64,000 nucleotides of DNA. Source: a bacterium (GTDB taxonomy: Bacteria > Electryoneota > Electryoneia > Electryoneales > Electryoneaceae). The DNA lies in assembly GCA_963675295.2 (NCBI GenBank), contig CAXXKJ010000001.1:192001-256000 (forward strand), in the 5' to 3' direction. A program made the translations under genes and the position numbers. Below, piece by piece: positions 4,460-57,079 of this stretch; the stretch's first letter is position 1; each line of letters begins with the position of its first letter. The notes under the pieces are model-generated. The model saw only the letters and a program-made list of their open reading frames with translations. It was not told the origin of the DNA and searched no databases.

Positions 4460-4836
4460 ACTACCCCCCTTGGTTGAAGCTGACTGTACCCGGTTACGAG
4501 ACTGCAAACGAAATGAATACAACAGGTTTAAAATCGTAAGTTGCTATTTCGTGTCGGATGAAGTCTGTTGAGGTCACAGGAGAGCTGTTCGTGGTAAACC
4601 ATCGGCCCCTTTTCCGACTAGTTTACACAAAGATAGGTAAATAAGATAACACCCTAACTATTTGAGACAAGTGTATTTGCGGGATATTTTTTGTTTTCGG
4701 GGCTCTCGAGCCAGTGATCCAAGCTGTTGTTTTGTATAGAAAAAGGTGAACCACGTTGTGGTCCACCCATAAAGTTGACCGGGGTCGTCCGAGATCGGCC
4801 CCCACGCCAGTGCACACTTTACACTGGGTCCGATCC

Positions 4837-6591
4837 TTACCGCACCAGCATCAGCTTCCGCGTCAGATTCAGCTGGCCGGGCACCGTCGCCCGCACGAAA
4901 TACAGCCCGCTGGCGAGATGCGTCGCGTCGAACGTGTACGCGTGCAATCCGGCAGACACAGACCCGTTCACCAACTCCGCCACCTGCTGACCGTTCACGT
5001 TGTACACCGCCACCCGCAACTCAGCCGCTTCCGGCAACGCGACCCGCACCGTCGTCATCGCGTTGAACGGGTTCGGTGTGCAATCTAGCGACATGTCACC
5101 ATCAGCCAGAACCGCAAACTCATCGTCGCCTGCGAGATCCGCACCCGGACGAGGGAGTTTCGTCACATCAAACGTGTCCGCGGCAACAACCTGATCCGGC
5201 CACGTGCCCAGGTTGGCGATAAAATAGAACTCGCCAGTCGGCAGGTTGTAGGGGACGTATTGCCTGCGTACCTCTACTCGTTGTTGTCCAGCCGGAAGAA
5301 ACAAATCCGGATGGACGTTGAACGCGCGAACCAGCTCACCGCTGGTGAAACGGATTTCCCCCCATAGGTCAACACTTGCGCCGTCAGCCGTCCGATTCCA
5401 CGCAGACCAATGGAAGACGAGGTTGCTGCCGTTGGGGCGAATGTTCACGGGTAGTTGTTTGGGAGTCACCGAAACGGCGAAGTCAACGTTTGGCAGATTG
5501 TTCTCCCGGACCACCAGCGGCCCGTCCCAGCGTCGCGACTCGACAAACTCCGGATAGCCGTCGCCGGTCAGATCAAATGTGCCCTGCCGGTCAGGCCAAC
5601 TGATCTGATAACAGATCTGATGCTTGCGCAAGTTCCACGTGCCACGGTTTTCCAGCCAGGCACGTCTCGGGATGTCATGGTAGATGTAGGATAGATCGAG
5701 GTCGCCGTCGGCGTCCATGTCCGCCAGCGAGATGTACGGCAGGACTTCATAGTCTTCAACAATGAACAGTTCCCACAATCCGTTGAGCAGCTGGCCGTGC
5801 CAGATCGCCAGGTAATCGTCCGTCGCTGCGGCAACACTGGGTGTGCCGTCACCGGTCAGATCGCCGACACGGACTTGATCCGCGTCGGCACCGTACGCGA
5901 TCGGGTGATGGGTCCAGTCCAGGCCGCCACCGAGATTCTCGAACCAGTTGATCTCGTCATCCCAGTTGACCGCACCGCAGGTGACGATGTCCAGATCGCC
6001 GTCGTCGTCCATGTCGGCGACCTCGAAATCACTTATTCGTGTCATGCCCCAGTCAAACTGGTGCATCACCCAACTGCTGCCCTGGTCGATGTTCTCATGC
6101 CAGATCAGCCCCCCGAGGGTCCAGTCTTCTGTAATCAGGATGTCGATATCGCCGTCATTGTCCAGATCGACGGGCTCGACTTCGGTGGCCGATGGAAACT
6201 CCGGCCCGATTACTTCCATGTCCCACGCCGCCCCATCGCCAAGATTCCAGAACAGGCGAAACTCATGATCGAACTGGGCCTGTGTAATCAGGTCGATGTG
6301 ACCGTCCCCGTTGAAATCCGCGGGACGTACCCGGCGGGCATCGTCAAAGTCATCATCCACGACGTGTTCAACGAACGTCAGCTGATTGTCGAGGTTTTCA
6401 AACCACGCGATGCGGTCGTCATTTCGTGACGCGATCAGCAAATCCATCCGTCCGTCATTGTTGATGTCCGCGCGCTGAATATCAGCGGCGCCATCGTCGT
6501 CTGGACGGATCACATGTTCGTACCACATCGTTTGCGCGAAAGAAGAAGACAGGCACAACAAGCTTAACGCGAGAAAAAGCAGGTATTTCAT
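4837..6591 (-). CDS. FG-GAP/VCBS repeat (Ca-binding beta-propeller) protein with Ig-like domain and CTD
   Basis: Signal peptide MKYLLFLALSLLCLSSSFA; about seven DxDxDGxxD...WxEN repeats; CTD PNPFNAMTT...KLMLVR; alternative start 6603. Confidence 0.85.
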   Translation of the reverse strand: MKYLLFLALSLLCLSSSFAQTMWYEHVIRPDDDGAADIQRADINNDGRMDLLIASRNDDRIAWFENLDNQLTFVEHVVDDDFDDARRVRPADFNGDGHIDLITQAQFDHEFRLFWNLGDGAAWDMEVIGPEFPSATEVEPVDLDNDGDIDILITEDWTLGGLIWHENIDQGSSWVMHQFDWGMTRISDFEVADMDDDGDLDIVTCGAVNWDDEINWFENLGGGLDWTHHPIAYGADADQVRVGDLTGDGTPSVAAATDDYLAIWHGQLLNGLWELFIVEDYEVLPYISLADMDADGDLDLSYIYHDIPRRAWLENRGTWNLRKHQICYQISWPDRQGTFDLTGDGYPEFVESRRWDGPLVVRENNLPNVDFAVSVTPKQLPVNIRPNGSNLVFHWSAWNRTADGASVDLWGEIRFTSGELVRAFNVHPDLFLPAGQQRVEVRRQYVPYNLPTGEFYFIANLGTWPDQVVAADTFDVTKLPRPGADLAGDDEFAVLADGDMSLDCTPNPFNAMTTVRVALPEAAELRVAVYNVNGQQVAELVNGSVSAGLHAYTFDATHLASGLYFVRATVPGQLNLTRKLMLVR

Positions 6592-6714
6592 CAAAACCCC
6601 CATATTGATTTACTACGGTCAGCTATTGGCTGGCCGGGCACGCAAGAAACCCGGACAGCAGATTCGATATATAAATAACAAATCATCGTCTGGGCAAAAG
6701 CGTCGTTATCGTTA

Positions 6715-8493
6715 TTAACGGATCAGCATCACCTTCTGCGTCTGGTTCAGCTGGCCGGGCACCGTCGCCCGCACGAAATACAACCCACTCGCGAGATGCG
6801 CAGCGTCAAAGCTGAATTCATGCAATCCGGCTGGTACCGATTCGTTCACCAACTCCGCCACCTGCTGACCGTTCACGTTGTACACCGCCACCCGTAACTC
6901 GGACGCTTCTGGCAGCGTTACCCGTACTGTCGTCATCGCGTTGAACGGATTCGGCGAACAGTCCAGCGACGCTGCCAACGCGGTTGGTTCGGTGGGTACA
7001 ACGTCAGCGTTCAACGGATCCGTCCACTCTTCACGCTTATTGATGAACAGGGTGTCAGCGGCCAGGATCTGGTCGGGCCAGGTACCGATATTGGCGACGA
7101 AGTAATTGAGTCCGCTCGGCAGGTAGTTCGGAACATACTGCCAGCGAACTTCCGCCCGTTGCCAGCCAGCTGGAATGTCCGTTGCGGGATGCACATTGAA
7201 CGCCCGCAACTGTTCGCCGGACGAACCCCAGATTTCAGCCCAGATATCCAGCGTAACATCCGTATCGGTCTGATTACCGACTGTCCAGCGAAAGCTGAAG
7301 TTGCCACCGCCACGGGAGATGGTGATCGGAAAACCATGCTGGGACCGAACCGTGATGGAATACTCAGAGCCGGAAAGGTTGTTCTCGAAACTCGGAAAGT
7401 AACCGTCATACAACTGGGATGCGACCAGGTCCAACGCGCCATCATTGTTGATGTCGCTCAGCACGTGGTCATTCGCCCAAAGGTACGTGTAGCAGATCTG
7501 ACGCTCACGCCAGGTTCCGTCGGGCCGGAATTCCCACCACGCAAAGGTGTCCGTGTGGCGCAACTTGGACGTGAAATCCAGGTCACCGTCGCCGTCGATA
7601 TCAGCAAAACACATGTTGCTCATGACCGGGCGCGTCCCGACAATCGTGTGGTCCCAAGTGCCATGGGGGTCTTCTGTTTGCCAGTAGACGACTCCGTCGT
7701 CCGTACCGGCAACAATCTCCTGGGTGCCATCGTTGTTGATGTCGTTGACATACAGCTGCGTCGCGAGGCTAAGGCCATAATTTGGTGAGATGGTATGCGT
7801 GGTCCACGTCGTAGCACTGTCCTGATTCTCGATCCAGTCGATTTGATCAGGAATACTGCTCGTCGTATTCACCACGATATCCGGATCGCCGTCCAGGTCC
7901 ACATCCGCAATTGTGTACTGGGACGCGGAGAAATTCATCGTGATGGGGATATGGTGAACGTCGCCGAAGCCCGTGTTGTTCACATTCTCATACCATTCAA
8001 CACGACGAGGAAGGCTCCGCAGCCCGGCGACAAGATCGAGATCTCCGTCCACGTCGATATCAACGAGATGAATCCCCTCAAGGCCTGGGATGTCATCATT
8101 CACGACCACCTTTGTCCAGTCTGATCCCTGTCCCAGGTTGTAATACACGCTGAGATCCTGATCATCACGGCCCCAGGCAGCCAGGTCGGGGTCGCCATCT
8201 CCATCGATATCGCCGAAGGCGGCGTAAGAAGGGTGCTCAATCACATCGTCAATGACATGTTCCTCGAACTCAAATGTGCCATCCAGATTTTCCCACCAAC
8301 TCAACCGGTCCTGCCCGTAATTCGCGCCCACGATATCCGGCCAGCCATCGTCATTCAAGTCAACGGACAACAGGCTGTACAGCCCCACTCGTTCTATGTC
8401 TATTTCACGTGCGTGATGCTGAATCCACTGCGGCTGGCTGAAAACGGTCGAGTAAACGGCAAGCAGGATCGTGGTCAACAGAAAGCGGTTCAT
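6715..8493 (-). CDS. FG-GAP/VCBS repeat protein with Ig-like domain and CTD, paralog of 4837..6591
   Basis: Signal peptide MNRFLLTTILLAVYSTVFS; DIDGDGDPD/DIDVDGDLD repeats; shared RAFNVHP...ANIGTWPDQ segment; CTD. Confidence 0.85.
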   Translation of the reverse strand: MNRFLLTTILLAVYSTVFSQPQWIQHHAREIDIERVGLYSLLSVDLNDDGWPDIVGANYGQDRLSWWENLDGTFEFEEHVIDDVIEHPSYAAFGDIDGDGDPDLAAWGRDDQDLSVYYNLGQGSDWTKVVVNDDIPGLEGIHLVDIDVDGDLDLVAGLRSLPRRVEWYENVNNTGFGDVHHIPITMNFSASQYTIADVDLDGDPDIVVNTTSSIPDQIDWIENQDSATTWTTHTISPNYGLSLATQLYVNDINNDGTQEIVAGTDDGVVYWQTEDPHGTWDHTIVGTRPVMSNMCFADIDGDGDLDFTSKLRHTDTFAWWEFRPDGTWRERQICYTYLWANDHVLSDINNDGALDLVASQLYDGYFPSFENNLSGSEYSITVRSQHGFPITISRGGGNFSFRWTVGNQTDTDVTLDIWAEIWGSSGEQLRAFNVHPATDIPAGWQRAEVRWQYVPNYLPSGLNYFVANIGTWPDQILAADTLFINKREEWTDPLNADVVPTEPTALAASLDCSPNPFNAMTTVRVTLPEASELRVAVYNVNGQQVAELVNESVPAGLHEFSFDAAHLASGLYFVRATVPGQLNQTQKVMLIR

Positions 8494-13119: not shown

Positions 13120-13130
13120 CGCGACAGAAC

Positions 13131-13255
13131 GTAAAAGAAGCCAAAGACGCAACGGACGCAAAAGATGCAAAAGAAGTAACAGACAGGAACAGAAAGTAAC
13201 GGATAGGAAAAGACAGGAAAAGACAGGGGACAGCCACACCTCGCGACTGTCCCTG
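13131..13255 (+). repeat. 9-bp then 10-bp tandem micro-repeats followed by a GGGGACAG..CTGTCCC hairpin
   Basis: gcaaaagat-like nonamers, agacaggaaa-like decamers, hairpin at 13224-13255, starting just after the stop of 10822..13119. Confidence 0.75.
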
Positions 13256-15772: not shown

Positions 15773-15794
15773 ACCACGGACTTAAGTCCGTGGT
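15773..15794. repeat. Perfect 22-bp palindrome, IS200/RAYT-end-like
   Basis: accacggacttaagtccgtggt. Confidence 0.6.
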
Positions 15795-15810
15795 AAGAAG
15801 GAATGCAAAA

Positions 15811-15899
15811 CGGGGACACTTTGTCCCTAAAGTGTCCCCGTACTATCTTTGTCTGTCTGTTCCTGTCTTTTACTATCTTTTCCTGTCTGCTCCTGTCTT
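15811..15899 (-). repeat. Decamer array plus GGGGACAC..GTGTCCCC hairpin downstream of CTD gene
   Basis: 12-bp inverted repeat cggggacacttt/aaagtgtccccg and about six tcctgtcttt-like decamers abutting the stop of 15900..17633. Confidence 0.8.
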
Positions 15900-17633
15900 T
15901 TATTTCATAAGAACAACTTTCTGCGTCTGCGACATCTTGCCCGGCACCGCCGCCCGCACGAAATACAACCCGCTCGCCAACCCGGACGCGTCAAACGTCA
16001 ACCCGTGCGTCCCGGCGTCGAACGATCCGTCCGCAAGCTGCGCCACTTGCTGCCCGGCGACGTTATACACCACGACTGTCAGCTCTGCCGTTTCCGGCAG
16101 GGTGACCGTCAGCGTTGTCGCGGCATTGAACGGGTTCGGCCATACGGTGTTCAGCGTGTACCGGTCCGCCATCGTCACCGCTTCACCGAGATCCGCAGTC
16201 GCGAGGAACGGGTCATCCACCGCCCAGTCGGCGCTTGATCCAATGCCGGCCAGCAACGGCGCGGCCTTGCTGAACGTGAAGCTATCCTCCACATAATTCG
16301 TCGGATAGCCAACCTGGCCGAAGAAGATGTACTCACCCGCCGGAGCGTAGTTCGGGATCGGCTGGGTACGGTTCGGCACAGTGATCTGCATGAACGGCGT
16401 CAGGGTGAAGTACTGCGTGCCGGTTTCCATCACTGTGCCGTTCGGGAGTTCCACGAGGGTTCGGAAGAAGACGTTCTGGAACGTGCCGCCGAACGGGCTG
16501 TTGAGCGTGACATCGTAGACCAACGTGCCGCCGTTGGCCGGGATGGCCGTGTTGTGCGGCGTCAAGGTCAGGATCTGATCGTTGCCGCCCGGGCCTTCGC
16601 CCGGTGAGCCGAGGTCGCCCGCGCTGCCAGTCCACATCTCTTCTGATACCGACCAGTTGGCACCGATCATGTTGTCCGCATCCAGGTCGGGCAGGTAGAT
16701 AGAAGCGCCGTCCGCTTCCGGGAACCCGTTGTTCTCATCGTATTCGACGGCGTCAATCACCGTGCCCCAGAAGTCCGTCAGGATGATTTCGTCATCGGTG
16801 TTGTCGAGGTCGATGGCGTAGTTGTAGAAAACGAAATCCGGAATGATTCCACCGTTGTCATCCGGATCCCCCCACCCGGCGAGGACCACAAAATCGCCCG
16901 GTTCGATCACAAGATTGCCCGGAATGGCGTAGTACTCACCGTCGTTATCGAGGATCCGGAACAGCCGCATGTTCGCGGTGGTGGACCCGGCGTTGTACAC
17001 CTCAAACCACTCGCCGTAGAAATCCGACACCGCCGCCGGATCGTACAGGATCTCCGAAATCACCAGCTCGGGCGCGACCCACGGCTCTGGATTCGCTTCG
17101 CCCGGCGACCCGAAATCACCCCAGCTACCGGTCCACGCTTCATACGACACCGCCCAGTTTTCCGGATCGTTGTTATCCAGGGACGGGTCGGTCAGGTAGA
17201 TCGATGCGCCTTCGACATTCGTCCAACCCTGAGCCACATCCCACCAGATCTCATCCATCAGGATGTCTTGGGCGTTATACAGCTTCAGGACGTCGTCATC
17301 ATCCTCAAACGCGAAGTTGTGGTATTCAGAATCACCCACAACCCCACCATTGAGCAAACTATCAATTTCGTCAACCAGCACACGATACTCGTGCGGCGGT
17401 ACTTCCAGACCGGAGATGGTGAACGTGCCGATCCCATCATCCCGGATCGTCCAGTCCGTCATATGGATCGTTTCATCGCTGTTGTTGTACACCTCGAACC
17501 ACTCACCGCGCGAATCCTGGCATTCCAACGGGCTGATCATGACCTCGGTGATCACAATTTCCGCCTGAACCGACGCCGCCAGAATGAACAATGCCATCAA
17601 TACACCCGCCGAAACCGTACGCAGGCCCTTCAT
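15900..17633 (-). CDS. Lamin-tail-domain (2 repeats) protein with Ig-like domain and CTD
   Basis: IVITEVMISP..GEWFEVYN and LVISEILYDP..GEWFEVYN repeats each ending GSPGE; signal peptide; GGGGAAGG before ATG 17633. Confidence 0.85.
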   Translation of the reverse strand: MKGLRTVSAGVLMALFILAASVQAEIVITEVMISPLECQDSRGEWFEVYNNSDETIHMTDWTIRDDGIGTFTISGLEVPPHEYRVLVDEIDSLLNGGVVGDSEYHNFAFEDDDDVLKLYNAQDILMDEIWWDVAQGWTNVEGASIYLTDPSLDNNDPENWAVSYEAWTGSWGDFGSPGEANPEPWVAPELVISEILYDPAAVSDFYGEWFEVYNAGSTTANMRLFRILDNDGEYYAIPGNLVIEPGDFVVLAGWGDPDDNGGIIPDFVFYNYAIDLDNTDDEIILTDFWGTVIDAVEYDENNGFPEADGASIYLPDLDADNMIGANWSVSEEMWTGSAGDLGSPGEGPGGNDQILTLTPHNTAIPANGGTLVYDVTLNSPFGGTFQNVFFRTLVELPNGTVMETGTQYFTLTPFMQITVPNRTQPIPNYAPAGEYIFFGQVGYPTNYVEDSFTFSKAAPLLAGIGSSADWAVDDPFLATADLGEAVTMADRYTLNTVWPNPFNAATTLTVTLPETAELTVVVYNVAGQQVAQLADGSFDAGTHGLTFDASGLASGLYFVRAAVPGKMSQTQKVVLMK

Positions 17634-17952
17634 ACCTTCCCCCTTTGGTGGAACCAATGTGAATATCTTCACGATAGAATCAACAGAGTACAAATCGTTA
17701 CCGGCTGTTTTTCAAGGCAGTAGACAAAAAAACGGCGGCAGCCGTTTTCCGTTTCTTGAACAACAGTCAATATCCCAAAGATACGAAATGAAGGTAGTCA
17801 ATGCTGCTGCGGCTCCCGTACTCCCCAATGTTGACGCCAAAAAACGGACTTTCCTCGTCTGGAATACAAGCACGGTTTCAACCGGCGGCGGGGGAATCCG
17901 AGCGAAAGACAAAATGAAGAGTGGTCCGTCACGAGATCCGTCCAGACAAGAA

Positions 17953-18040
17953 GGGGACACGTTGTCCCCAAAGTGTCCCCGAGTTATCTTTTCCTGTCTT
18001 TTCCTATCCTTTACTATCTTTTACTAGCTGTTCCTGTCTG
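17953..18040 (-). repeat. Decamer array plus GGGGACAC..GTGTCCCC hairpin downstream of CTD gene
   Basis: ggggacacgttgtccccaaagtgtcccc then ttcctgtctt/ttactatctt decamers abutting the stop at 18041. Confidence 0.8.
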
Positions 18041-20188
18041 TTACTTCATGAGAACCACCTTCTGCGTCTGCGTCATCCGGCCCGGAACCGTCGCCCGCAC
18101 GAAATACAGCCCGCTGGCCAACCCGGACGCATCAAATGTCAGGTCGTGCGTCCCGGCGCCGAATGATCCGTCCGCCAACTGAGCCACCTGCTGCCCGGCG
18201 ACGTTGTACACTGCGAGGTTCAGCCGACCCGGCACGGACAGCTCGACCGACACAACTGCCCTGGTATTGAAGGGGTTGGGATAGACCGGCTGCAGCAGAA
18301 AGCGAGATGGTACCGCTGCCCCTGTACGATAAGCCGATTCCGGTGCCGACAACGCCATGCTGCAATCCAGAATCATCAGCGAACTTCGCCTGGCCACAAA
18401 CAGCAGCTGATCGAGCACAGCAAGCCCGGAGATTTCGCCTTGCAAGTGGTAGTAGCCGATTTCAACCGGCTGGCTTGGATCGGTGACATTGTAGACGGAG
18501 ATTCCGACCCCGGTGAATCCGCAATAGAGGATGCCGTCGGCGTACGCCAACCGGTCGGCGGTTCCGCTGGCATAAATATTCGCCAGCTCAACAGGCGTTG
18601 ACGGATTGCTGATATCATAGATCGCAACGCCGTGGCTATCCCTTGCAATGAACGCCATGTTGTCGCCAGTTGTCACATCATTAACGTGCCGATTGCTGTC
18701 CCGATTGCTTACAAACTCGGGGTCGTACGGGTCGCTGATGTCCAGGATGAAAAACGCGTTATCAAGTCCCAGGAACGCCAGGTCGCCATCCACGCATACC
18801 GCCCTGGGATCGCCACCCAGGTTGGTGAACGAAGTGATTTCGTCAGGATCATCCGGATCGCTGACGTCGAGAATCATGAAGCGATGGGAGTACGAAGCAT
18901 CGGCGAGATAGACGAGATCCCCGGCCACATCAATATCATAGGTATGGATCGGTGTGACCAGGTCACCACGTTCGACTGGCTGGGCAAGGTCGCTGATGTC
19001 AACGACACACATTCCTCCCTGCCAGTCTGATGCATAAATGAACTCCCCGGATGCGGTCAACCGGTTCAGCTCCTCAAGCGGGTCGCAGAAGCCCACGTCA
19101 TACGGATGAAGCGGATCCGAGATGTTTACAGTGCGTAAACCGTACTCACCCTGTGCGACAAAGGCGTAACCGTTGTGCAGAATGACGTCCCGAACGTCAT
19201 CCGTTGTCCGGAACCAGCCCAGTTGCTCAGGCTGAGAAGGATCACCAATGTCCACAGTGCAGAGCTGTGAATTGCCCACAGCCACACAGGCGACATTTCC
19301 ATCGAGGGCGACACCCTCGGCTGAACCGGGCAGGTCGTGCTCTGCCAGGTATTGTGGCTGTGTCGGCTGGCTCAGATCGTATACGATCAATCCCGACACG
19401 CGGCAGGCGACAAACGCGGTCGTACCCTGCACGGCAACATCGACAGCGTTATTTGGAGTGTCGGTTGACCCGATCACGGTAGGATGCATCGGCTCTGCCA
19501 CACGAACAACCCGCACCCCCCGGTAATTCACAGCGACACAGGCGTAACCATTGGAAACGGCGATTGCCTTTGGCAGCCCGCCAACGTAACAAGTACCCAG
19601 GCGAACCGGCTGGATCGGATTGCTGAGATCAACGACAGCGAAATACACTGTCGCGTTGCCCACATACGCATATCCGCCGTCAATCGTGATGGTTGTCGCC
19701 CCTGACGGTACGTTCAGGGAACCCGCGAGGAAGGGGTGCTCAGGATCGCTCACATCAATGATTCGGATTCCCGCGCTGTATGCGGCAACGAAAGCATACT
19801 GATCGTATAACGCGACATCGTTCGCCACGTTAAGCACATTTTGTGTGCTGACTGGAAACGGGTGGTGGGGGTCGCTGATGTTGACGATGGTCAGACCGGC
19901 CGCACCATCTGCGACATACGCATACTCACCGGAAACAGCCACCTTCAGCGCTGAACCCGATGTGGAGCATGAACCGGTTTCCAAGGAATTGACCGGATCG
20001 CTGACATCAAGTACACGCAGACCGGAGTAGTCTGCTGCAACATAGGCATAGCCTTCGGCTACAGCTACGTCATGAGCCGTACCCCAAGCGTCATAGAGCG
20101 AACCTGCCAGGCTCACATTGAGGCTGTCCTGGGCAAGGACGTGGAAACACAACGACAGGAAAAGAAGCAATACGTACGCGGCTTTCAT
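18041..20188 (-). CDS. LVIVD repeat beta-propeller protein with CTD
   Basis: Many YAYVA..GLxIxDxSDP repeats; signal peptide; CTD ending QTQKVVLMK. Confidence 0.88.
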   Translation of the reverse strand: MKAAYVLLLFLSLCFHVLAQDSLNVSLAGSLYDAWGTAHDVAVAEGYAYVAADYSGLRVLDVSDPVNSLETGSCSTSGSALKVAVSGEYAYVADGAAGLTIVNISDPHHPFPVSTQNVLNVANDVALYDQYAFVAAYSAGIRIIDVSDPEHPFLAGSLNVPSGATTITIDGGYAYVGNATVYFAVVDLSNPIQPVRLGTCYVGGLPKAIAVSNGYACVAVNYRGVRVVRVAEPMHPTVIGSTDTPNNAVDVAVQGTTAFVACRVSGLIVYDLSQPTQPQYLAEHDLPGSAEGVALDGNVACVAVGNSQLCTVDIGDPSQPEQLGWFRTTDDVRDVILHNGYAFVAQGEYGLRTVNISDPLHPYDVGFCDPLEELNRLTASGEFIYASDWQGGMCVVDISDLAQPVERGDLVTPIHTYDIDVAGDLVYLADASYSHRFMILDVSDPDDPDEITSFTNLGGDPRAVCVDGDLAFLGLDNAFFILDISDPYDPEFVSNRDSNRHVNDVTTGDNMAFIARDSHGVAIYDISNPSTPVELANIYASGTADRLAYADGILYCGFTGVGISVYNVTDPSQPVEIGYYHLQGEISGLAVLDQLLFVARRSSLMILDCSMALSAPESAYRTGAAVPSRFLLQPVYPNPFNTRAVVSVELSVPGRLNLAVYNVAGQQVAQLADGSFGAGTHDLTFDASGLASGLYFVRATVPGRMTQTQKVVLMK

Positions 20189-20332
20189 TGGTCACTCCGG
20201 GTAAGATCCACAATCCTCGATTCAGTTTGTAGCCAGCTCAACCAACCTGAATACACCGTCTACTCATCACAAGATAAGTCTGGAATCGCGCAAGAAACCA
20301 CCAGAGCCAATCCACGCACATCATCCATATAG

Positions 20333-20364
20333 AAAACAAAACCCGGCGGATCAGGCCGCCGGGT
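20333..20364 (-). terminator. Terminator after gene 20395..22224
   Basis: acccggcgg/ccgccgggt stem followed by tttgtttt on the minus strand. Confidence 0.7.
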
Positions 20365-20394
20365 TGGTAAACTCTGCTCATTTTCAAACGGGTG

Positions 20395-22224
20395 CTAGCG
20401 GACCAGCATCGCCTTCTGTACCGCACTCATACGTCCCGGCACCGTCGCGCGCACGAAATACAGCCCGCTGGCGAGGTGGGATGCGTCGAACGTCAGCTCG
20501 TGCGACCCAGCCTCGAACGACCCCTCAGCCAGCTTAGCCACCTGCTGCCCGGCGACGTTGTACACCACCACCGACAGCTCGGACATCTCCGGCAGGGTGA
20601 CCGACAACGTTGTCGCGGCGTTGAACGGATTCGGCCATGCCGCACTCAGAGTGAACTCACGCGCCAACGCGGATTCGGTCCCGTCAGATGCCAACGCGTC
20701 GTTCAGCAACTGCGGGGCATTGTCCGCATCCCACGTCCATACATCGCCCGCAAGCTCCTGCCCGATCTTGCTGAAGCCGAAGACATCGGTCAGACGCCGG
20801 CCGCCCATGGTTCCAACATTCGAGATCAGTGCGTACTCACCCCCGGGAGCGATGGAGGGCACTGGCTGTCCCAGACCGGGAACCGTAATGTCCGTGTTCG
20901 CTGGCATGCTGAAGCTGTAGGAATGCGTCGGACCATACAAGTCGCCGTCCGGCAGCTGAACCATCGTCCACCACGTCACCATTCGTGGGGACATCGTGCC
21001 GTTCACCAGGCGTAGGCTGTACTCCAGCATGCCGCCGAACCCGGGGATGATCGTACTGGAGGTCGGCGTGATGGTGACACCGATCTCGGACGGTTGTTCC
21101 CACCATTTGACATAGCCGTCATCGTGCGCGGTGCTGCAGATATCCAGCAGCCCGTCGCCGTTGAAATCGCCGGTAGCGACCCCCCATGGTTCGTCAAAAC
21201 CGGCAGCAGCACGGTGCATCACCCAGACACTCGCGTCACCGTTGACGTTCTCCCAGTACGCGATACAGTCCATGCCCGCCATCGCGCAAAGCACGTCCAG
21301 ATCGCCATCGTCATCCATGTCAGAGGCGACCACATCATGCGGCGAAGGGAAATACCCTCCCTCGTAGATGATGAATTCGTGCGTGGTGAAACTGCCATCG
21401 TCGTTCTGCTGCCACCAGAACACCGTGTCGTGGTAGTAGGACACCCCAAGGATGTCGATGTCGCCATCACCATCGAGGTCGGCTGCGTCCAGGCCCCAGC
21501 AGCCGCCGTCACCGGTGTGCAGCTCGTGACGGGTCCACGTCAAGCCGAGCCCGTCCTCATTCGACCACCAGGCGAAGATGCCGTCCAGGCCGTACGAGTC
21601 GCCGATCAGGTCGGTGTCGCCGTCGCCATCCACATCGGTCGCGAGTACGAAGTTGGCGTTGATAAAATCCTCATCCACCGAGTGCTCGACCCACGTCGTG
21701 GCGTTGTCCTGATTCTCAAACCAGATCACGCGCCCTGCCTCAAGCGGGCGATGCATCACTGCGACATCGATGTCGCCGTCGCCGTCCATGTCCGCCGCCG
21801 AGGTACCCGGTGTGAATGGCATCCCAAGAGAGATATCGTGCCAGACCCAGTTCGTGCCGGATCCGTCCGGATTCTCCCACCAGTACACATGGCCGGCGTG
21901 CTTCGCGCCGATCATATCGATGTCGCCGTCGTTGTCCATGTCGACGGGATCCATCGAGGATAGCTCATTGCTGATGGTGTGCCTAACCCACGTGCCCCCC
22001 GCACCATCCTCATTTGACCACCAGTGTGTTCCCCCGATGAAAGCGGCGTAACCGAACATGTCCATGGCGCCGTCACCGTTGATGTCAGCGGTCTTCACCC
22101 ACGGCAACCCGCCGTTGTAGTCTTCACCCGTTCCGTCCACAGGGTGGAATTCCCACGCGAGCTGCGCCTGTGCGAACGACGCTGTCAATACGAGCAGAAA
22201 TACGACCGCAATCCATTTCTTCAT
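20395..22224 (-). CDS. FG-GAP/VCBS repeat protein with Ig-like domain and CTD
   Basis: Seven DxDGDGDxD repeats; signal peptide MKKWIAVVFLLVLTASFAQA; CTD. Confidence 0.88.
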   Translation of the reverse strand: MKKWIAVVFLLVLTASFAQAQLAWEFHPVDGTGEDYNGGLPWVKTADINGDGAMDMFGYAAFIGGTHWWSNEDGAGGTWVRHTISNELSSMDPVDMDNDGDIDMIGAKHAGHVYWWENPDGSGTNWVWHDISLGMPFTPGTSAADMDGDGDIDVAVMHRPLEAGRVIWFENQDNATTWVEHSVDEDFINANFVLATDVDGDGDTDLIGDSYGLDGIFAWWSNEDGLGLTWTRHELHTGDGGCWGLDAADLDGDGDIDILGVSYYHDTVFWWQQNDDGSFTTHEFIIYEGGYFPSPHDVVASDMDDDGDLDVLCAMAGMDCIAYWENVNGDASVWVMHRAAAGFDEPWGVATGDFNGDGLLDICSTAHDDGYVKWWEQPSEIGVTITPTSSTIIPGFGGMLEYSLRLVNGTMSPRMVTWWTMVQLPDGDLYGPTHSYSFSMPANTDITVPGLGQPVPSIAPGGEYALISNVGTMGGRRLTDVFGFSKIGQELAGDVWTWDADNAPQLLNDALASDGTESALAREFTLSAAWPNPFNAATTLSVTLPEMSELSVVVYNVAGQQVAKLAEGSFEAGSHELTFDASHLASGLYFVRATVPGRMSAVQKAMLVR

Positions 22225-22420
22225 GATCCCCTCTCCCCAAATTAGTGTGCATACGGCTTGGGCTAAAATACGGCGGTGACAACAGAAAAAGGAAGCTGAC
22301 CGACAGTTATTTCATGTTTATTCCGGCAGATCGCTCTCCATCAGCCTGACGATCCACCGTACCGTGTCCAACCCGCGGACCAAACTGGATGACACCTGCG
22401 AGGGTCGCTCGAACAACAAC

Positions 22421-22451
22421 AAAAACGGGAACGGATTATTCTCCGTTCCCG
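22421..22451 (-). terminator. Terminator after membrane protein gene
   Basis: cgggaacgga/tccgttcccg stem followed by ttttt on the minus strand. Confidence 0.7.
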
Positions 22452-22475
22452 ACATGAATGACTTCCCAGGACACG

Positions 22476-23090
22476 TTAGACAAATTCCAACTCGGGCTCG
22501 GTTCGGCCACTCTGAATCAGGATCATCGCCTGCAGGACTTCGCCCGCCAGCAAGACCAGCCCGCCGATTGGCGCGAGGAAAAAGGTCAGCATCAGCGCAG
22601 ACCCGATGATCTGGGTGTAGGCCAGTGGTCGCAGGTAGCCAAACAGGGATTCCTTCAGCCGCATCAACCGAACACCGAAGATGATGCCGAAGATGCTCAT
22701 TGGAATACCGACCGATGCCATCGCAATCAGTCCTGGTAAAATGACTGACAGTGCCTCCGCTCGACTCAGGTTGTCGTCCACGCTGAAGCCGATCACCGTG
22801 CGGAATACCGAGCCGATTACACTGATGAGGATGTTGCAGATAATCAGAAGGATGATCAACGTATCCACTTCGTGAAACTCGAAGCGATTGTTGAGCAGCC
22901 GCTTGAACCAGAGGAACCCGTAAACCGAACAGCCGACTTGCACGATTGTGATGAAAAGCGTGATCGGGTTAAGAATGCTGAACGAATATCCCATCAGCGA
23001 CATGATCACGCCAAGCACGCCGCCAATAATCATAAGTGACGCCGAGGCAACGGTCACCCAACCCGCGACTTCGTAACGTTCTTCCTGCAT
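22476..23090 (-). CDS. Multi-pass membrane protein, unknown function
   Basis: About six hydrophobic segments; GGGAG RBS; downstream of the HTH gene. Confidence 0.75.
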   Translation of the reverse strand: MQEERYEVAGWVTVASASLMIIGGVLGVIMSLMGYSFSILNPITLFITIVQVGCSVYGFLWFKRLLNNRFEFHEVDTLIILLIICNILISVIGSVFRTVIGFSVDDNLSRAEALSVILPGLIAMASVGIPMSIFGIIFGVRLMRLKESLFGYLRPLAYTQIIGSALMLTFFLAPIGGLVLLAGEVLQAMILIQSGRTEPELEFV

Positions 23091-23144
23091 GGTTCATCTC
23101 CCTTGAGCACATCCCGACTGGAAGATTCAAGCAACTCGTCACAA

Positions 23145-23294
23145 CTACCTGAAGTTGCAGAAGATCAAAACCAGATTCTCGAGATCGAACACGTCCCCGG
23201 ATACGGTGTCGAGGAGAAACAGAACTGTGATGATCGTCAGTATCACCAGCGCAATCGTCCGGCTCCACTCATGTTCCCTGCCTGACTCTTCCAT
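23145..23294 (-). CDS. Possible 49-aa small membrane protein
   Basis: GGGGAG upstream of ATG 23294; one TM-like segment IALVILTIITVLFLL; lies between the HTH and membrane protein genes. Confidence 0.4.
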   Translation of the reverse strand: MEESGREHEWSRTIALVILTIITVLFLLDTVSGDVFDLENLVLIFCNFR

Positions 23295-23349
23295 CTCTTC
23301 ATCTCCCCGGCATCCGGGATCAAGATCCCATCCCGTTGCCAGTCGTTCA

Positions 23350-23562
23350 TCAGACATAATCCGGTTCATGGACCAGAATGTCACCCGGCTGGCAATCGAG
23401 TTCCACACAAATCGCCTCCAACGTGCTGAAACGGATGCCTTTGACACGACCCGTTTTCAGCAACGACAGATTCGTCACCGAAATACCGATCTTCTCGGAC
23501 AATTCGGTCAGCTTCATCTTGCGCCTGGCAAGCATCACGTCGAGTGTCACTGTTATCGCCAT
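23350..23562 (-). CDS. Cro/C1-type HTH regulator (YozG-like)
   Basis: LDVMLARRKMKLTELSEKIGISVTNLSLLKTGRVKGIRFSTLEAICVELDCQPGDIL. Confidence 0.9.
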   Translation of the reverse strand: MAITVTLDVMLARRKMKLTELSEKIGISVTNLSLLKTGRVKGIRFSTLEAICVELDCQPGDILVHEPDYV

Positions 23563-23681
23563 GGTGTGATATTACATAAAGGATCTTATGAGAGTCAAGG
23601 ATTTTTTTATGTAAAACATAAAATAGCTCCGCAGAGAGACTCCGAGGACGGGCAGGTTTTTCAGATTCAACTCAGGAGAAA

Positions 23682-24605
23682 TCAGTCCTGGCCCGGCAAC
23701 GCGCTGACCGGCACCGCGAGCGTGGCCCGGACAAACAGTGACGGGTCCAGTTCGTTGTCGCTGAAGAGGTCTTCGTTGCGATCATAAACCTTGTACATCC
23801 GCAGTCCGGCTGCCATGCCGCCGCTGAGACGAAGGCGCAGGTAGGATCCCAGAGCAACCTCGACCTTCGGACCGGCGGTCATCTGGGCGTACTCGATGTT
23901 GAAGCCTTCGTTCAACGAACGGCTGAGCCAGTAGTTGTAGCCGTCCAGTTCGACCGCCAGCCCGGCGCTGAACGTTTCGCTGAACTGCCACATCCACTCG
24001 GCGTTCGACGGCAGCATCAGCATTACGTGCCACTGGGATGCCTTGTACGTATACCCCAGCATCGGGAGCAACATCGGACGCCCGAGCTGCGAGGAATATC
24101 GCGCGCCGAAGGTAACGTCGGAATGGCCGGACAGCATGCGCACCGCGAACACACCGCCTTGCACCTGGAAGGAATTCTTGTCCACGCCGTTGTACGCGTC
24201 GGTATAAAACCCAGGGCTGACAACTGCGAGCCCGATCCAGTCGGAGCTGAACTGGTGACGGATCAGCATCCGGTATGCACCGCCGGCAAGGCCTTCGCCG
24301 ATATCGTCCGCATACTGCAGTTGGCCGGGGGAGGGATCATTCTGGTACGACAGGTCCATGTACTGCCCGCTGAGGCCGTGCAGGATCCGCCAGTCGTTGC
24401 CGAGGTCCGTCTGCCAGAACCACGCCTCGAAATCATAGCGCATCACGTCCACTTCCAGCTCCGGCGCGCCGGAGACCGGCTCCGCCAGCGTCGCCGGGGC
24501 GAAATACGACGTCGAGAACGCCACCAGGTCCTGGGCTTGGCTAGAGTGCGCGTGGAAGACCAGCACACAACAAATCGCCAGCAGCAGAGAGAGTCGCTTT
24601 GTCAT
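23682..24605 (-). CDS. Outer-membrane beta-barrel protein (DUF6268-like)
   Basis: Signal peptide; amphipathic beta strands; G.RYSSQLG.PMLLPMLGYTY and LMLP motif recalled for this family. Confidence 0.65.
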   Translation of the reverse strand: MTKRLSLLLAICCVLVFHAHSSQAQDLVAFSTSYFAPATLAEPVSGAPELEVDVMRYDFEAWFWQTDLGNDWRILHGLSGQYMDLSYQNDPSPGQLQYADDIGEGLAGGAYRMLIRHQFSSDWIGLAVVSPGFYTDAYNGVDKNSFQVQGGVFAVRMLSGHSDVTFGARYSSQLGRPMLLPMLGYTYKASQWHVMLMLPSNAEWMWQFSETFSAGLAVELDGYNYWLSRSLNEGFNIEYAQMTAGPKVEVALGSYLRLRLSGGMAAGLRMYKVYDRNEDLFSDNELDPSLFVRATLAVPVSALPGQD

Positions 24606-24640
24606 GCAGCCTCAAGGGGATTGGGATTGATGGAACCAGA

Positions 24641-24674
24641 AACGGGAGCAGCAACATAATGCACTGCTCCCGTT
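24641..24674 (-). terminator. Hairpin after gene 24746..27271
   Basis: aacgggagcag/ctgctcccgtt inverted repeat. Confidence 0.55.
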
Positions 24675-24745
24675 GAATAAACCCATTTCATGCTGGTGAG
24701 GTGGATTTGAATACGATCCGGATCCCCACTAACGGCAACCGCCGC

Positions 24746-27271
24746 TTATCGGACCAGCATCATCTTCTGCGCCTGATTCAGCAGGCCCGGCACGGTCGCG
24801 CGCACGATGTACAGCCCGCTGGCGAGCGAAGACGCGTCGAGGGTGAACTCGTGCTGCCCGGCGGTGTACGATCCATGCGCCAGTTCCGCGACCCGTTGCC
24901 CGGCGACGTTGTACACGATCACATTCAACTCAGACGCCGCCGGCAAACTCACTGTTACCGTCGTCGTGGCGTTGAACGGGTTCGGCCAGGCGGGGTTCAG
25001 CGCATACTTAACGGGCAGGTCCGTGCCTGCGGTTGCCGCCGCTACCGTTCCACCAGGCAGCTCAAGCCCCCAACTCGCCCAGTCCACTCTACGTGTGGGT
25101 CCCGAGGCCGGAACCACCTCAAACTCGAAAACGTCCTTGCCGATCGCGGTACCCGGGTGGCTTCCCGCCTTCATCCGGAAGGTGTAGCGGCCGAGCGGCG
25201 CATCGGCGGGGACGATCTGCACAATGTCCGTCTCCTCGATCACCATAGACGGCGTAAATTCAACGTCCCGGATCAGCCAGATCGGCGACACGAGATACCC
25301 GCTTGGCGTGTAAACATCCGCCCAGACATCGACCAATTGAGTGCTCTGCAAGTTGCTGGACAACAGCGCGTCATAGGTGAACCATCCACCTTGCGGCACG
25401 GTCAATGGGTAATCTGCGATCAACGTGATATCGATCAGCTTGTTCGTCGCCTGACGGCAATCCAGCACGAGAAACTTGTCCCGGTCGGCGACGCAGACAT
25501 AGTCCTCGTCCTCAGAACTGACCTGGTACGCTCGGTCGGGTGTGTCATAGTAGCCGGTGAACAGGGGACGCGCGGGATCGGTGATGTCGAAGACTGCCAC
25601 ACCCCAGACATGACAGGCGAGGAACGCCGTATGTCCGACCAAGCTTATGTCCAGGGCATTAAGAGTTCGTCCGTCATAGGCGACTTCAAATGGTGCGGAC
25701 GGATCGCTGACATCCAACACACGCAAACCGCCGTGAGCGAGCAGGAGGTAGTGGTCAACTTGCGCCATATCCGAAACATGATAGAGGTTGCCCATGAAGT
25801 GACCGATCAATTGTGGATTGGAAAGATCGCTGATATCGTATATCCGGAGGCCTTCCTCGCGCAGCGTGAAGTATGCGAGGTCGCCATCAATGCAGATGCT
25901 GTCGAGCAATGGCCCATCCTCAAGGAAAGTTGAGATGAGCTGCGGATTTGTCGGATTCGTTACATCCAACACGAAGACAATGGGGCCGATGGTAGCTCCC
26001 AGAAACGCTGTCCCATCAGCGATATGGACCAGGTACACCTCTGCGGGCAAATCGACATTTGCAGCAACCTGCGGATTCGTCGGATCGTTGATATCGACGA
26101 CTAACAGGCCGTATTCACGACAAGGGGCATACAGATAGTTTCCATCAACGACAAACTGCTGCGGTTCCGGCAGATCCAAGTGACCAGTCTCGACAGGATT
26201 TCCCGGGTCGCTCACATCAACGACAAACATCCCCGCGTCTCTCGTTCCGACATACGCATACCCATCGGATTGAACAACAGCCTGGATATCATCAACCGCT
26301 CGGAACTGATTCACCTCGGTCGGTGCTGACGGTGTCGACACATCAAGGATCCGCATCCCCTCAAAGTTGTTGGCGAGAAATGCATAATTTCCAACGACAG
26401 AGATGTTCTTTGTGCGTACACCTGGATCGATCACGCTGACGTACACCGGTACCTCCTGATCGCTCAGGTCTACGATCACCATACCGTCGCCCTCGCAGGA
26501 CAGGAAAGCATACTGTCCGGCGAGTTCGATCTTCTCCGGATCTTCCTGCATGCTGAGAACATGTACTTCAACAGGATTCGTTGGATCGCTGATGTCAAAT
26601 GTTCGCAGGCCATGGTTGTCGCAGGTGATATACAGGTAGTCCCCGGAAACCGCGACACCGTACGCATCGTACATCACGACCTGCGCGACCGGCTGCGCGT
26701 TCAACGGATCGCTGATGTCAACCACGATCAACCCCTCGTCATCACCGGCGACATACAGATAATCCCCATCAACGGTCAGATCTTCGATTCCGTAGACCAG
26801 GTTTATCGTGTTCACATTCGCCGGGTTGGAGGGATCACTGATATCAAACACCTCGATCTGACTTGCAAAATGCTCGGCGACGAAGAGGTAGTTGTCCTGG
26901 ACAGCAACAGCAGTGACACTGAGAACGTCACACGTAGAGACAAGTTCCGGGTTCAACGGGTCCGCAATGTCCACGATGTGAGCCTGGTAGTCGCCCATCA
27001 CGATGTACTGCCCGAAACGGGTGAGGCAGGCACCGTCAAATCCCGGCGGACTGACGGAACTCACTTCCACCGGATGGTTTACATCGCTGATATCCACGAT
27101 GTGCAACCCGCCCGCAAGGACATAGGCGTACGATCCGTCAACCATGATGTCCACGGCCATCTCCCAATGGAGATCGTACAAGGAACCGGCGATAGAAACG
27201 TTCAGGCTATCCTGGGCAAACACGGGAAGGCACAGCAGCAGCGCGGCGAAGATGACGAGCAGGTGTTTCAT
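24746..27271 (-). CDS. LVIVD repeat protein with Ig-like domain and CTD
   Basis: ATG 27271 after GAGG; signal MKHLLVIFAALLLCLPVFA; mature N-terminus QDSLNVSxAGSLYD shared with 18041..20188; LVIVD repeats; CTD. Confidence 0.88.
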   Translation of the reverse strand: MKHLLVIFAALLLCLPVFAQDSLNVSIAGSLYDLHWEMAVDIMVDGSYAYVLAGGLHIVDISDVNHPVEVSSVSPPGFDGACLTRFGQYIVMGDYQAHIVDIADPLNPELVSTCDVLSVTAVAVQDNYLFVAEHFASQIEVFDISDPSNPANVNTINLVYGIEDLTVDGDYLYVAGDDEGLIVVDISDPLNAQPVAQVVMYDAYGVAVSGDYLYITCDNHGLRTFDISDPTNPVEVHVLSMQEDPEKIELAGQYAFLSCEGDGMVIVDLSDQEVPVYVSVIDPGVRTKNISVVGNYAFLANNFEGMRILDVSTPSAPTEVNQFRAVDDIQAVVQSDGYAYVGTRDAGMFVVDVSDPGNPVETGHLDLPEPQQFVVDGNYLYAPCREYGLLVVDINDPTNPQVAANVDLPAEVYLVHIADGTAFLGATIGPIVFVLDVTNPTNPQLISTFLEDGPLLDSICIDGDLAYFTLREEGLRIYDISDLSNPQLIGHFMGNLYHVSDMAQVDHYLLLAHGGLRVLDVSDPSAPFEVAYDGRTLNALDISLVGHTAFLACHVWGVAVFDITDPARPLFTGYYDTPDRAYQVSSEDEDYVCVADRDKFLVLDCRQATNKLIDITLIADYPLTVPQGGWFTYDALLSSNLQSTQLVDVWADVYTPSGYLVSPIWLIRDVEFTPSMVIEETDIVQIVPADAPLGRYTFRMKAGSHPGTAIGKDVFEFEVVPASGPTRRVDWASWGLELPGGTVAAATAGTDLPVKYALNPAWPNPFNATTTVTVSLPAASELNVIVYNVAGQRVAELAHGSYTAGQHEFTLDASSLASGLYIVRATVPGLLNQAQKMMLVR

Positions 27272-27503
27272 AGGGCACCTCAATAAGTGAGCATGTAGCC
27301 TAAGTTTGAGAAATAGGTCATGCGATAAAGTACAATCCGATGTAGTCTCATTCAATGATCTGACGGTCTGGTTCACACTTTTTTCCGTGTCCGGCTCGTC
27401 ACGCCGTACAGAGGGAACGTGCACACCAGCCCTACCGTTCAATACACATCTTCCGTATCTTCGAAGCGATTGCACCCGCCTACAATACGCCGGGGGAGAC
27501 CGC

Positions 27504-54599: not shown

Positions 54600-54836
54600 A
54601 GTCCTGAGTCTTGAGTCCTGAGTCCTGAGGAAAAGACCACGACAAAGATCAGAAATACCGGGGACACTTACTCCGCTAAGTGTCCCCGGATTGCCTGATT
54701 CAAAGAGCAACACGGCCGCGTCTGACGAGCAGACACGGCCACAATCTTTTATTCACCCAGATACTCATCCACTATTTACCGTTTACCGATTACCGTTTAA
54801 TGGTTACCGGCTACCGACCACCGAGTAACGGCTACG
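54600..54836 (+). repeat. Composite non-coding module: heptamer array, GGGGACAC hairpin, second hairpin, ttaccg-type heptamer array
   Basis: (agtcctg)x4; cggggacacttactccgctaagtgtccccg; ggccgcgtctg..cagacacggcc; degenerate ttaccg array; duplicated at 56851-57079. Confidence 0.8.
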
Positions 54837-56843: not shown

Positions 56844-56850
56844 GAGACCC

Positions 56851-57079
56851 AGTTATCAGTTGTCAGTTCTCAGTTGTCAGTAAACCAATCCGGGGACACT
56901 TACTCCGCTAAGTGTCCCCGATTTGTGTTGATCTGAGAGCAACACGGCCGCGTCCGTGAACAGACACGACCACAAGAGGAAACCCGCGTTGGCAAGCCAG
57001 CACGGGCAAGATAGGTGTAGCTTCGATTACCGATTACCGATTACCGATTACCGATTACCGATTACCGATTACCGACTAC
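56851..57079 (+). repeat. Second copy of the composite module, with 7 perfect CGATTAC repeats
   Basis: (agttgtc-like)x4; 30-bp hairpin at 56891-56920 identical to 54659-54688; agagcaacacggccgcgtc; (cgattac)7 at 57024-57072. Confidence 0.85.

Follow-up and report, generated by a model that had tools for sequence, protein, structure and literature searches.

Within a window of 64,000 nucleotides (nt) from an uncultured bacterium of the family Electryoneaceae (positions 192001 to 256000 of contig C1 in genome G000, which comprises 4.8 Mb in two contigs; all coordinates below are window positions), two neighboring minus-strand genes with unrelated bodies end in nearly the same type IX secretion system (T9SS) C-terminal domain (CTD) and are followed by the same noncoding module. 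Gene A (15900-17693) encodes a lamin-tail-domain protein with two lamin tail domains (LTDs), an Ig-like domain preceding the CTD, and a type A CTD. Gene B (18041-20188) encodes a beta-propeller protein with eleven LVIVD repeats and a T9SS CTD, and gene C (20395-22224), also on the minus strand, encodes an FG-GAP-repeat protein with a terminal CTD. BLASTP similarity between the products of A and B is limited to the last 87 residues. Here, we propose that the tails of A and B quite probably became alike through recombination between CTDs, with conversion of 3' modules and CTD-by-CTD crossover both taking part.

Anchored at the stop codon, the last 56 codons of A (15903-16070) and of B (18044-18211), both on the minus strand, encode 51/56 identical residues, as the original prediction had it for the stretch from VYNVAGQQ to the stop, and match at 145/168 nt. 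Genome-wide, a hidden Markov model (HMM) built from the CTDs of the window detected 424 open reading frame (ORF) tails, 417 of them terminal, that is, within 8 residues of the C terminus. Of all 86,736 CTD pairs, just 35 attain 51/56 residues, and at the nucleotide level the best match of A is B and that of B is A (the next-best values being 126 and 128 of 168 nt, in agreement with gapped BLASTN); therefore, chance is excluded. In the preceding 24 CTD codons, WPNPFNAATTLTVTLPETAELTVV in A (16071-16142, minus strand) and YPNPFNTRAVVSVELSVPGRLNLA in B (18212-18283, minus strand), the two genes agree at 42/72 nt and, as read from the sequences, at 8/24 residues. A two-rate change-point analysis placed the step in identity from 58% to 86% at 168 nt upstream of the stop codon, corresponding to 18211/18212 in B. 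The BLAST matches of the CTDs of A' and C', the counterparts of A and C in the same-genus genome G001, to B also end at 18211. This is the position near which the breakpoint had been predicted.

The CTD of A is a mosaic. Its 5' part is C-like and not B-like (61/72 nt shared with C, the nearest CTD, next best 55/72), and its 3' part is nearest to B, sharing 121/168 nt with C. At 70 sites A agrees with only B or only C; the 33 sites on the left comprise 7 B-like and 26 C-like positions and the 37 sites on the right 31 B-like and 6 C-like positions, giving a MaxChi value of 27.5 that was equalled in 0/100,000 permutations, with the break at -138/-133. For the 5' part of B, no close relative was found among the 416 other CTDs (best 48/72 nt), and its 3' part shares 145, 146, 143, and 128 of 168 nt with A, A', C', and C, respectively. 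Change-point and MaxChi analyses confine the crossover to 18173-18212 on the minus strand in B (16032-16071 in A), within the block coding for VYNVAGQQVA, where 30 nt read from the alignment are identical in B, C, and A'. The junction lies in or just after this block. The tail of C had been described as closely similar as well. This holds at the protein level, at which C shares 42-43/56 residues with A and B, but not at the nucleotide level, at which its values (121-128/168 nt, dS 0.67-0.90) are on a par with the next-best matches that each gene has in the rest of the genome.

A and B remain alike, without interruption, from the coding region across the stop codon into a decamer array, and 73/88 nt downstream of the stop are identical without a gap, until the likeness stops right after a hairpin. 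Directly 3' of the stop codon of A, an array of about six units of the AAGACAGGAA type (15841-15899, minus strand; period 10 in Tandem Repeats Finder [TRF]) precedes the hairpin GGGGACAC...GTGTCCCC at 15812-15839. The array directly 3' of the stop codon of B (17982-18040, minus strand; TRF period 10) precedes a GGGGACAC...GTGTCCCC hairpin at 17953-17980. Array length (59 nt) and hairpin offset (+60) are equal after both genes, in line with the prediction of one array and hairpin shared by the two. The only full-length co-linear BLAST match to the downstream module of A in the 4.8-Mb genome is that of B (83.9%, 87 nt). Both hairpins, which lie on the minus strand, were called by a terminator pattern scan, with 13 pairs and a following GTTTTGC for the one after A, and their fold z-scores are -4.5 (after A) and -3.6 (after B). 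With a GC-rich stem, a subsequent T-rich run, and repetition through the genome, they appear terminator-like, and neither the hairpin nor the downstream module matched a family in Rfam.

Could only the coding part have recombined, with array and hairpin reaching both genes independently as dispersed elements? We consider this unlikely. Array and hairpin are each dispersed, and their presence alone proves little: the GGGGACAC-N12-GTGTCCCC palindrome has 125 perfect copies in the genome, with loop classes in both orientations, and lies within 250 nt of 26/417 CTD genes, while 11 of the 20 strict decamer arrays in the genome (counted by a looser chain rule, the first strict pattern having given 10) stand right after a CTD stop codon. 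The arrays of A and B are identical at 46/59 positions, no higher than the 34-50/59 (best offset) found between the array of A and 12 other decamer arrays, so the likeness of the arrays was discarded as an argument for co-transfer. The array type also differs at the orthologous positions of G001. The case for co-transfer draws instead on co-linearity and equal spacing and on the comparison with G001, and independent arrival sits poorly with the equal array length, the equal hairpin offset, and the unbroken similarity through the stop codon. Among same-strand CTD-gene pairs within 10 kb, just two have the hairpin after both genes. Tail codons and array type also covary: all 14/14 CTD genes with decamer arrays end in K (overall 258/417), and 4/4 with heptamer CGGT arrays end in MLVR. 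In G001, the tract shared by A' and C' likewise extends through the array to the hairpin.

Arrays and hairpins of these kinds were seen elsewhere as well. Tandem arrays with periods of 7, 9, and 10 begin, at the median, 6 nt past stop codons, with units differing from gene to gene, even between neighbors; they follow 65/417 CTD genes versus 149/1,699 non-CTD ORFs with 400 or more codons (odds ratio 1.9, p=9e-5). Within the window they occupy 13129-13227, 15841-15899, 17982-18040, 54600-54629, 56850-56881, and 57024-57081. A pair of plus-strand neighbors with stops at 54595 and 56843 has 134/168 nt of the CTD 3' part in common, and the same layout of stop, array, and hairpin, with differing heptamer arrays (AGTCCTG or CAGTTGT) and a GGGGACAC hairpin at +64 or +48. 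At 15773-15794, just past the first hairpin downstream of A, stands a member of another hairpin family, ACCACGGA...TCCGTGGT. The corresponding site in G001, which is short of about 170 nt, does not have it; 7 further CTD genes, C2:2155219 and its G001 ortholog among them, are also followed by such a hairpin. In the predicted RNA fold of 17930-18043 (minus strand), the first decamers past the stop of B pair with TTCTTGTCTG just 3' of the hairpin and would lengthen its stem; a similar extension is predicted after A, and both may be incidental.

Comparison with G001 provides a second line of evidence. A' is 91% identical to A at the amino acid level, and contig C31 of G001 carries, in this order, an S15 peptidase gene, A', C' (FG-GAP), and cdaA, without an LVIVD gene between A' and C'. 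No ortholog of B was found in G001 or in G002 and G003, two other genomes of the genus (best 37-38%), nor in 15 genomes of the family (at most 38%). A search of 5.8 billion proteins with B, in which scoring was limited to the 8,000 candidates sharing most words, gave at most 37% identity among the 120 matches listed. By BLASTN, positions 2721-4787 of G001 correspond to 15916-17982 of the window at 86%; this synteny spans A, its upstream region, and the hairpin after B, and ends at the hairpin edge. The intergenic region from the hairpin after B to the start of A (17694-17952, minus strand) is orthologous to the C'-A' region in G001 (206/282 aligned nt identical, hairpin included), as is the hairpin after B to that after C', and direct reading identifies the DNA 3' of C' (array, hairpin, and flank) as the counterpart of the DNA 3' of B. 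The hairpin after A has its own ortholog in G001, located after A'.

When C' was compared with B and C, the left side contained 2 B-like and 32 C-like sites and the right side 25 and 13, with the break at -172..-141 and MaxChi equalled in 0/20,000 permutations. The CTD of C' is chimeric, with a C-like 5' part and a B-like 3' part, and the 3' segment of B with its hairpin and flank is the positional ortholog of the 3' end of C'. The chimeric C' together with the orthologous flank indicates that the two genomes are related through one crossover, in which the CTD of C met that of B. The breakpoint near 18211 would then mark where two CTDs crossed over, an event tied to the gain or loss of the whole of B, atop an earlier homogenization with A.

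B is an orphan-like paralog, at most 38% identical to any match among those found, and its shared tract with A is as old as the species split. Both observations would suit a module that dates from the birth of B, in which a newly arrived LVIVD body, bringing part of a CTD, joined a duplicate of the 3' end of A and no later conversion took place. We think this rather improbable. The hairpin and flank of B are positionally orthologous to those after C', so that an extra copy of the 3' end of A is unneeded, and conversion between preexisting genes is documented for A' and C'.

Under the recombination we favor, the tract shared by A and B would have a considerable age. Between G000 and G001, orthologs differ by a dS of 0.47 (body of A), 0.50 (S15 gene), and 0.84 (body of C). 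The last 56 codons of A and B differ by a dS of 0.54 (dN 0.058), similar to the 0.47-0.50 of A and S15, which suggests that the tract is about as old as the species split and not the product of a recent conversion. Across the last 56 codons, pairs among A, B, A', and C' are separated by nearly equal distances (139-146/168 nt shared), with the exception of A' and C' at 153/168. These two also share 70/72 nt in the 5' part, their CTDs differ by a dS of 0.26, and their common tract reaches from the start of the CTD through the array to the hairpin. The orthologous CTDs share 62/72 and 139/168 nt (A-A') and 65/72 and 132/168 nt (C-C') in the two parts. The paralogs A' and C' are thus more alike than the orthologs (153/168 versus 132-139/168 nt; dS 0.26 versus 0.47-0.84), and homogenization in G001 would therefore have followed the split.

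G000 and G001 have extreme 3' ends of different types. In A and B, the coding sequence closes with VVLMK and a decamer array follows; in A' and C', it closes with VMLVR, and the heptamers that follow are CGGTAAT-like and homologous to the arrays after C2:2152010 and C2:2155219. Only past about -61 does A side with B against A' (9 B-like sites versus 2; 182/20,000 permutations). Given this difference in tail and array, at least one cassette replacement and one local spread must be assumed. Since the conversion between A' and C' is independently established, G001 is probably the derived genome in this respect.

The C orthologs (20395-22224 in the window, 4886-6730 in the G001 locus L011) stand apart, with a dS of 0.84 (dN 0.11) well above the values of A (0.47) and the S15 gene (0.50). 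This could equally reflect faster evolution of C or its import, perhaps together with B, from a more distant lineage.

Shared tails between neighbors recur throughout the genome, in which a first pass with TIGR04183 gave 421 candidates. Among the 35 pairs with at least 51/56 identical residues, 32 are on the same strand and at most 8 kb apart. When only pairs with unrelated bodies were considered (no BLASTP match between the bodies at E<1e-3), at least 135/168 nt were shared by 11/86 same-strand pairs within 5 kb, by 0/42 opposite-strand pairs within 5 kb, and by 3/66,133 pairs more than 50 kb apart (Fisher's test, near versus far, p=3e-30; same versus opposite strand, p=0.016); gapped BLASTN gave identical counts. 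The odds ratio for neighbors is about 3,000-fold, on the same strand only, and synonymous codon identity is 0.67 for neighbors (n=25) versus 0.49 (n=1,539; p=9e-10). For the majority of the 78 near-identical pairs, the shared stretch begins at the first CTD codons (-237 to -275) and stops at the stop codon, in an ungapped comparison that can place a false boundary at an indel if the bodies are related. A divergent 5' part (at most 50/72 nt) occurs in 11/78 of these pairs, and in 6/11 of them the change falls at -165..-195, which points to the strand-3 block of the CTD as a recurrent junction.

CTD tails are conserved across the genome, several distant CTDs share 120-128/168 nt with A or B, and the synonymous codon identity of distant pairs already averages 0.50. 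One might thus ask whether purifying selection on the export signal and codon bias, together with a terminator of the same kind by coincidence, could account for the likeness of A and B with no recombination at all. The data make this highly improbable. Against 1,500 sampled CTD pairs located more than 50 kb apart and sharing at least 34/56 residues, of which 164/1,500 were not computable, the dS of 0.54 falls in the lowest 1% (14/1,500 at or below it; median 1.34). At sites encoding the same residue, 34/49 codons are identical between A and B, compared with a background of 0.50 +/- 0.10, and 102/3,715 background pairs reach the value of A and B. Selection on the protein would also have to coexist with a noncoding match of 87 nt that is unique in the genome and with a sharp step in identity inside a single domain. 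The mosaic is real, and its synonymous sites are unsaturated. The original prediction had named synonymous saturation between the neighbors at the level of distant CTDs as the sign of selection only, and the values found point the other way. Its broader inference, that recombination inside the CTD transferred the 3' coding end and the downstream DNA as one tract, is supported by the triplet test, dS, the unique co-linear match, and the sister genome.

A collapse or mis-joining of repeats at the CTDs during assembly can practically be dismissed: short-read contigs do break inside the CTD repeats (15774-15800 and 18089-18116), but the two copies are just 86% identical, contigs with 0 differences from three runs of one sample, possibly the assembly's own source data, cover 15774-18116 and 18089-23000 and thus span both junctions, and identical shorter pieces are present in a second sample. 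The stretch was found in 4 sequencing runs of one study, with no RNA data set among those listed. Contig joints at 85% likeness were considered as a live deletion variant and set aside as uninformative, their sides being short (22-40 nt) and derived from other CTD paralogs.

Several observations weigh against recombination as we envisage it. The 145/168 nt shared by A and B barely exceed the values between orthologous positions (A-A' 139, B-C' 143, B-A' 146), and G000 shows no conversion after the split. The last 20 or so codons and the array differ in type between G000 and G001, and this calls for extra replacement events. Within the module, the hairpin is a dispersed element of 125 copies, and the array identity of 46/59 falls within the range of other decamer arrays. 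The dS of 0.53 between the 24-codon 5' parts of A and B is uninformative, as just 8 codons encode the same residue and 16/24 differ. No informative outgroup was found for the direction of the B indel: at the cdaA locus of G002 the S15 gene is missing along with A, B, and C, the G003 contig ends 1.6 kb past cdaA, and a metagenome scan with A gave nothing above 43%. In the genome-wide survey, the contrast between strands is one of 11 pairs versus 0 (p=0.016), and the genomes and paralogs are not independent samples.

From the evidence above, a mechanism can be outlined. The approximately 240 bp of CTD-coding DNA present in about 417 genes would act as dispersed homology for homologous recombination, presumably of the RecA type, between co-oriented neighboring cargo genes. 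Gene conversion would have provided A and B with their last 56 codons, stop codon, 59-nt array, and hairpin from one copy at about the time of the sister split, and in the sister genome the tract from CTD start to hairpin would have been homogenized again, more recently, between A' and C'. A crossover between the direct repeats formed by the CTDs of C and B probably took place in the VYNVAGQQVA block, the most conserved part of the domain in the strand-3 region. Such an unequal crossover would have deleted B in the lineage of G001, or its reciprocal would have inserted B in G000, and either would explain the sharp breakpoint at 18211. With the junction in a conserved block, the chimeric CTDs would stay functional as export signals, and the exchanges may be a neutral by-product rather than a selected trait.

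In polymorphic toxins of the Rhs/CdiA type, C-terminal swapping uses a conserved coding block as a recombination handle for exchanging the adjacent part, and the 3' segments of babA and babB in Helicobacter pylori are an example of gene conversion. Compared with Rhs/CdiA, the polarity at the CTD genes is reversed, the 3' end being constant and the gene body variable, and no orphan cassettes were seen. The closest parallel may be Porphyromonas gingivalis, in which hagA and kgp are reported to have virtually identical 3' ends, homologous recombination deletes kgp, and proximity of the genes is stressed (PMC9328147), and gingipains and adhesins undergo domain rearrangement and allelic exchange (PMC5266723). 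As at hagA-kgp(-rgpA), close T9SS cargo genes have a common 3' sequence that includes the CTD, and recombination there gives in-frame deletions or the loss of a whole gene (PMC9328147, PMC5266723). The P. gingivalis genes share long adhesin modules and are true paralogs, whereas the genes described here combine unrelated folds (LTD versus LVIVD propeller) with 56-80 codons of homology. Unlike at those loci, array and terminator-like hairpin accompany the tail, and the numbers given here describe 417 genes of a lineage that is uncultured.

Concerted evolution among prokaryotic paralogs was surveyed by Wang and Chen in 2018 (PMC6053082). Similarly to such cases, A' and C' exceed the likeness of orthologs, and the tracts are confined to the homologous 3' segment. 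In contrast to whole-paralog conversion, the converting unit is the secretion-signal domain of otherwise unrelated genes, and the homogenization of A and B is old and not ongoing. According to the RgpB CTD structure, the type A CTD is an 80-residue terminal beta-sandwich signal whose last two strands form the primary signal (PMC4804311). With strands placed by sequence pattern, the junction would lie in the counterpart of RgpB motif B (strands 3-4), and the common part would cover strands 3-7, with the two final ones among them.

The process invoked here is ordinary gene conversion with unequal crossover and as such well known, and the CTD itself is ordinary with respect to PF18962 and TIGR04183. 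What is added here concerns its DNA as a recombination substrate, specifically a whole cargo gene that is present in one sister species and absent in the other with CTDs as its bounds, the 3' cassette traveling with the tail, and the genome-wide numbers. We found no description of CTD homogenization among unrelated cargo genes at genome scale in open-access papers and preprints. A secretion-signal domain would thus be a protein tag and also a DNA repeat that shapes the evolution of the cargo repertoire. Neighboring cargo genes would keep swapping tails, and a whole cargo gene could come or go by tail crossover with both frames intact. Phylogenies of CTDs would be unreadable as gene histories, identical tails of neighbors would be no sign of a common function, and assemblies and orthology calls at CTD-rich loci would need care. 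The genome-wide numbers may serve as a baseline for other CTD-rich lineages.

It is tempting to speculate further, although we hold the idea to be doubtful, that the CTD block and the hairpin, as a repetitive extragenic palindromic (REP)-like element, form paired anchors between which cargo genes are inserted, deleted, or re-tailed in frame, and that the cassette of last codons plus a 7-, 9-, or 10-nt array starting a few bases past the stop is swapped as a unit with a 3' untranslated region (UTR) function of its own. If true, the paired anchors would constitute a genome-wide recombination-based system that reshuffles more than 400 secreted proteins, and not incidental conversion.

The assignment of A, B, and C to T9SS cargo agrees with their domain content. 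LTD (6.5e-28) was detected in A and LVIVD (6e-88) in B with Pfam models, and Por_Secre_tail (PF18962) scored 35.9, 35.7, and 36.0 bits in A, B, and C, respectively (cutoff 27), each match stopping at most 3 residues before the stop codon and thus at the extreme C terminus. All three exceed the cutoff of TIGR04183 (23 bits), A with 44.3 and B with 46.5 bits. Putative N-terminal signal peptides were read by eye in B (MKAAYVLLLFLSLCFHVLAQ), A (MKGLRTVSAGVLMALFILAASVQA), and C (MKKWIAVVFLLVLTASFAQA), and an SprA-type translocon gene is present in the genome (SprA_N PF14349 at 160 bits, cutoff 27, in a frame of 2,258 codons). The window holds 15 terminal CTDs, the same number as counted originally.

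A and C share the pre-CTD Ig-like domain, with 50% identity across 231 amino acids. This domain of about 150 amino acids, encoded at 16143-16570 in A and 20638-21080 in C, is common to many other cargo genes of the genus and missing from B; residues 373-597 or so of A gave numerous matches at 39-55% identity. Gene C has its own GC-rich terminator at 20340-20365.

Beyond C, the locus between cdaA and a BNR gene is highly fluid within the genus. G001 is devoid of 22271-23677 and 23769-27410, which carry genes for a membrane protein of 204 amino acids, a protein of 307 amino acids, and an LVIVD-like CTD protein of 943 amino acids. A 91-nt remnant matching 23678-23768 is retained in G001, and the gene for the 204-amino-acid membrane protein is kept in G002.

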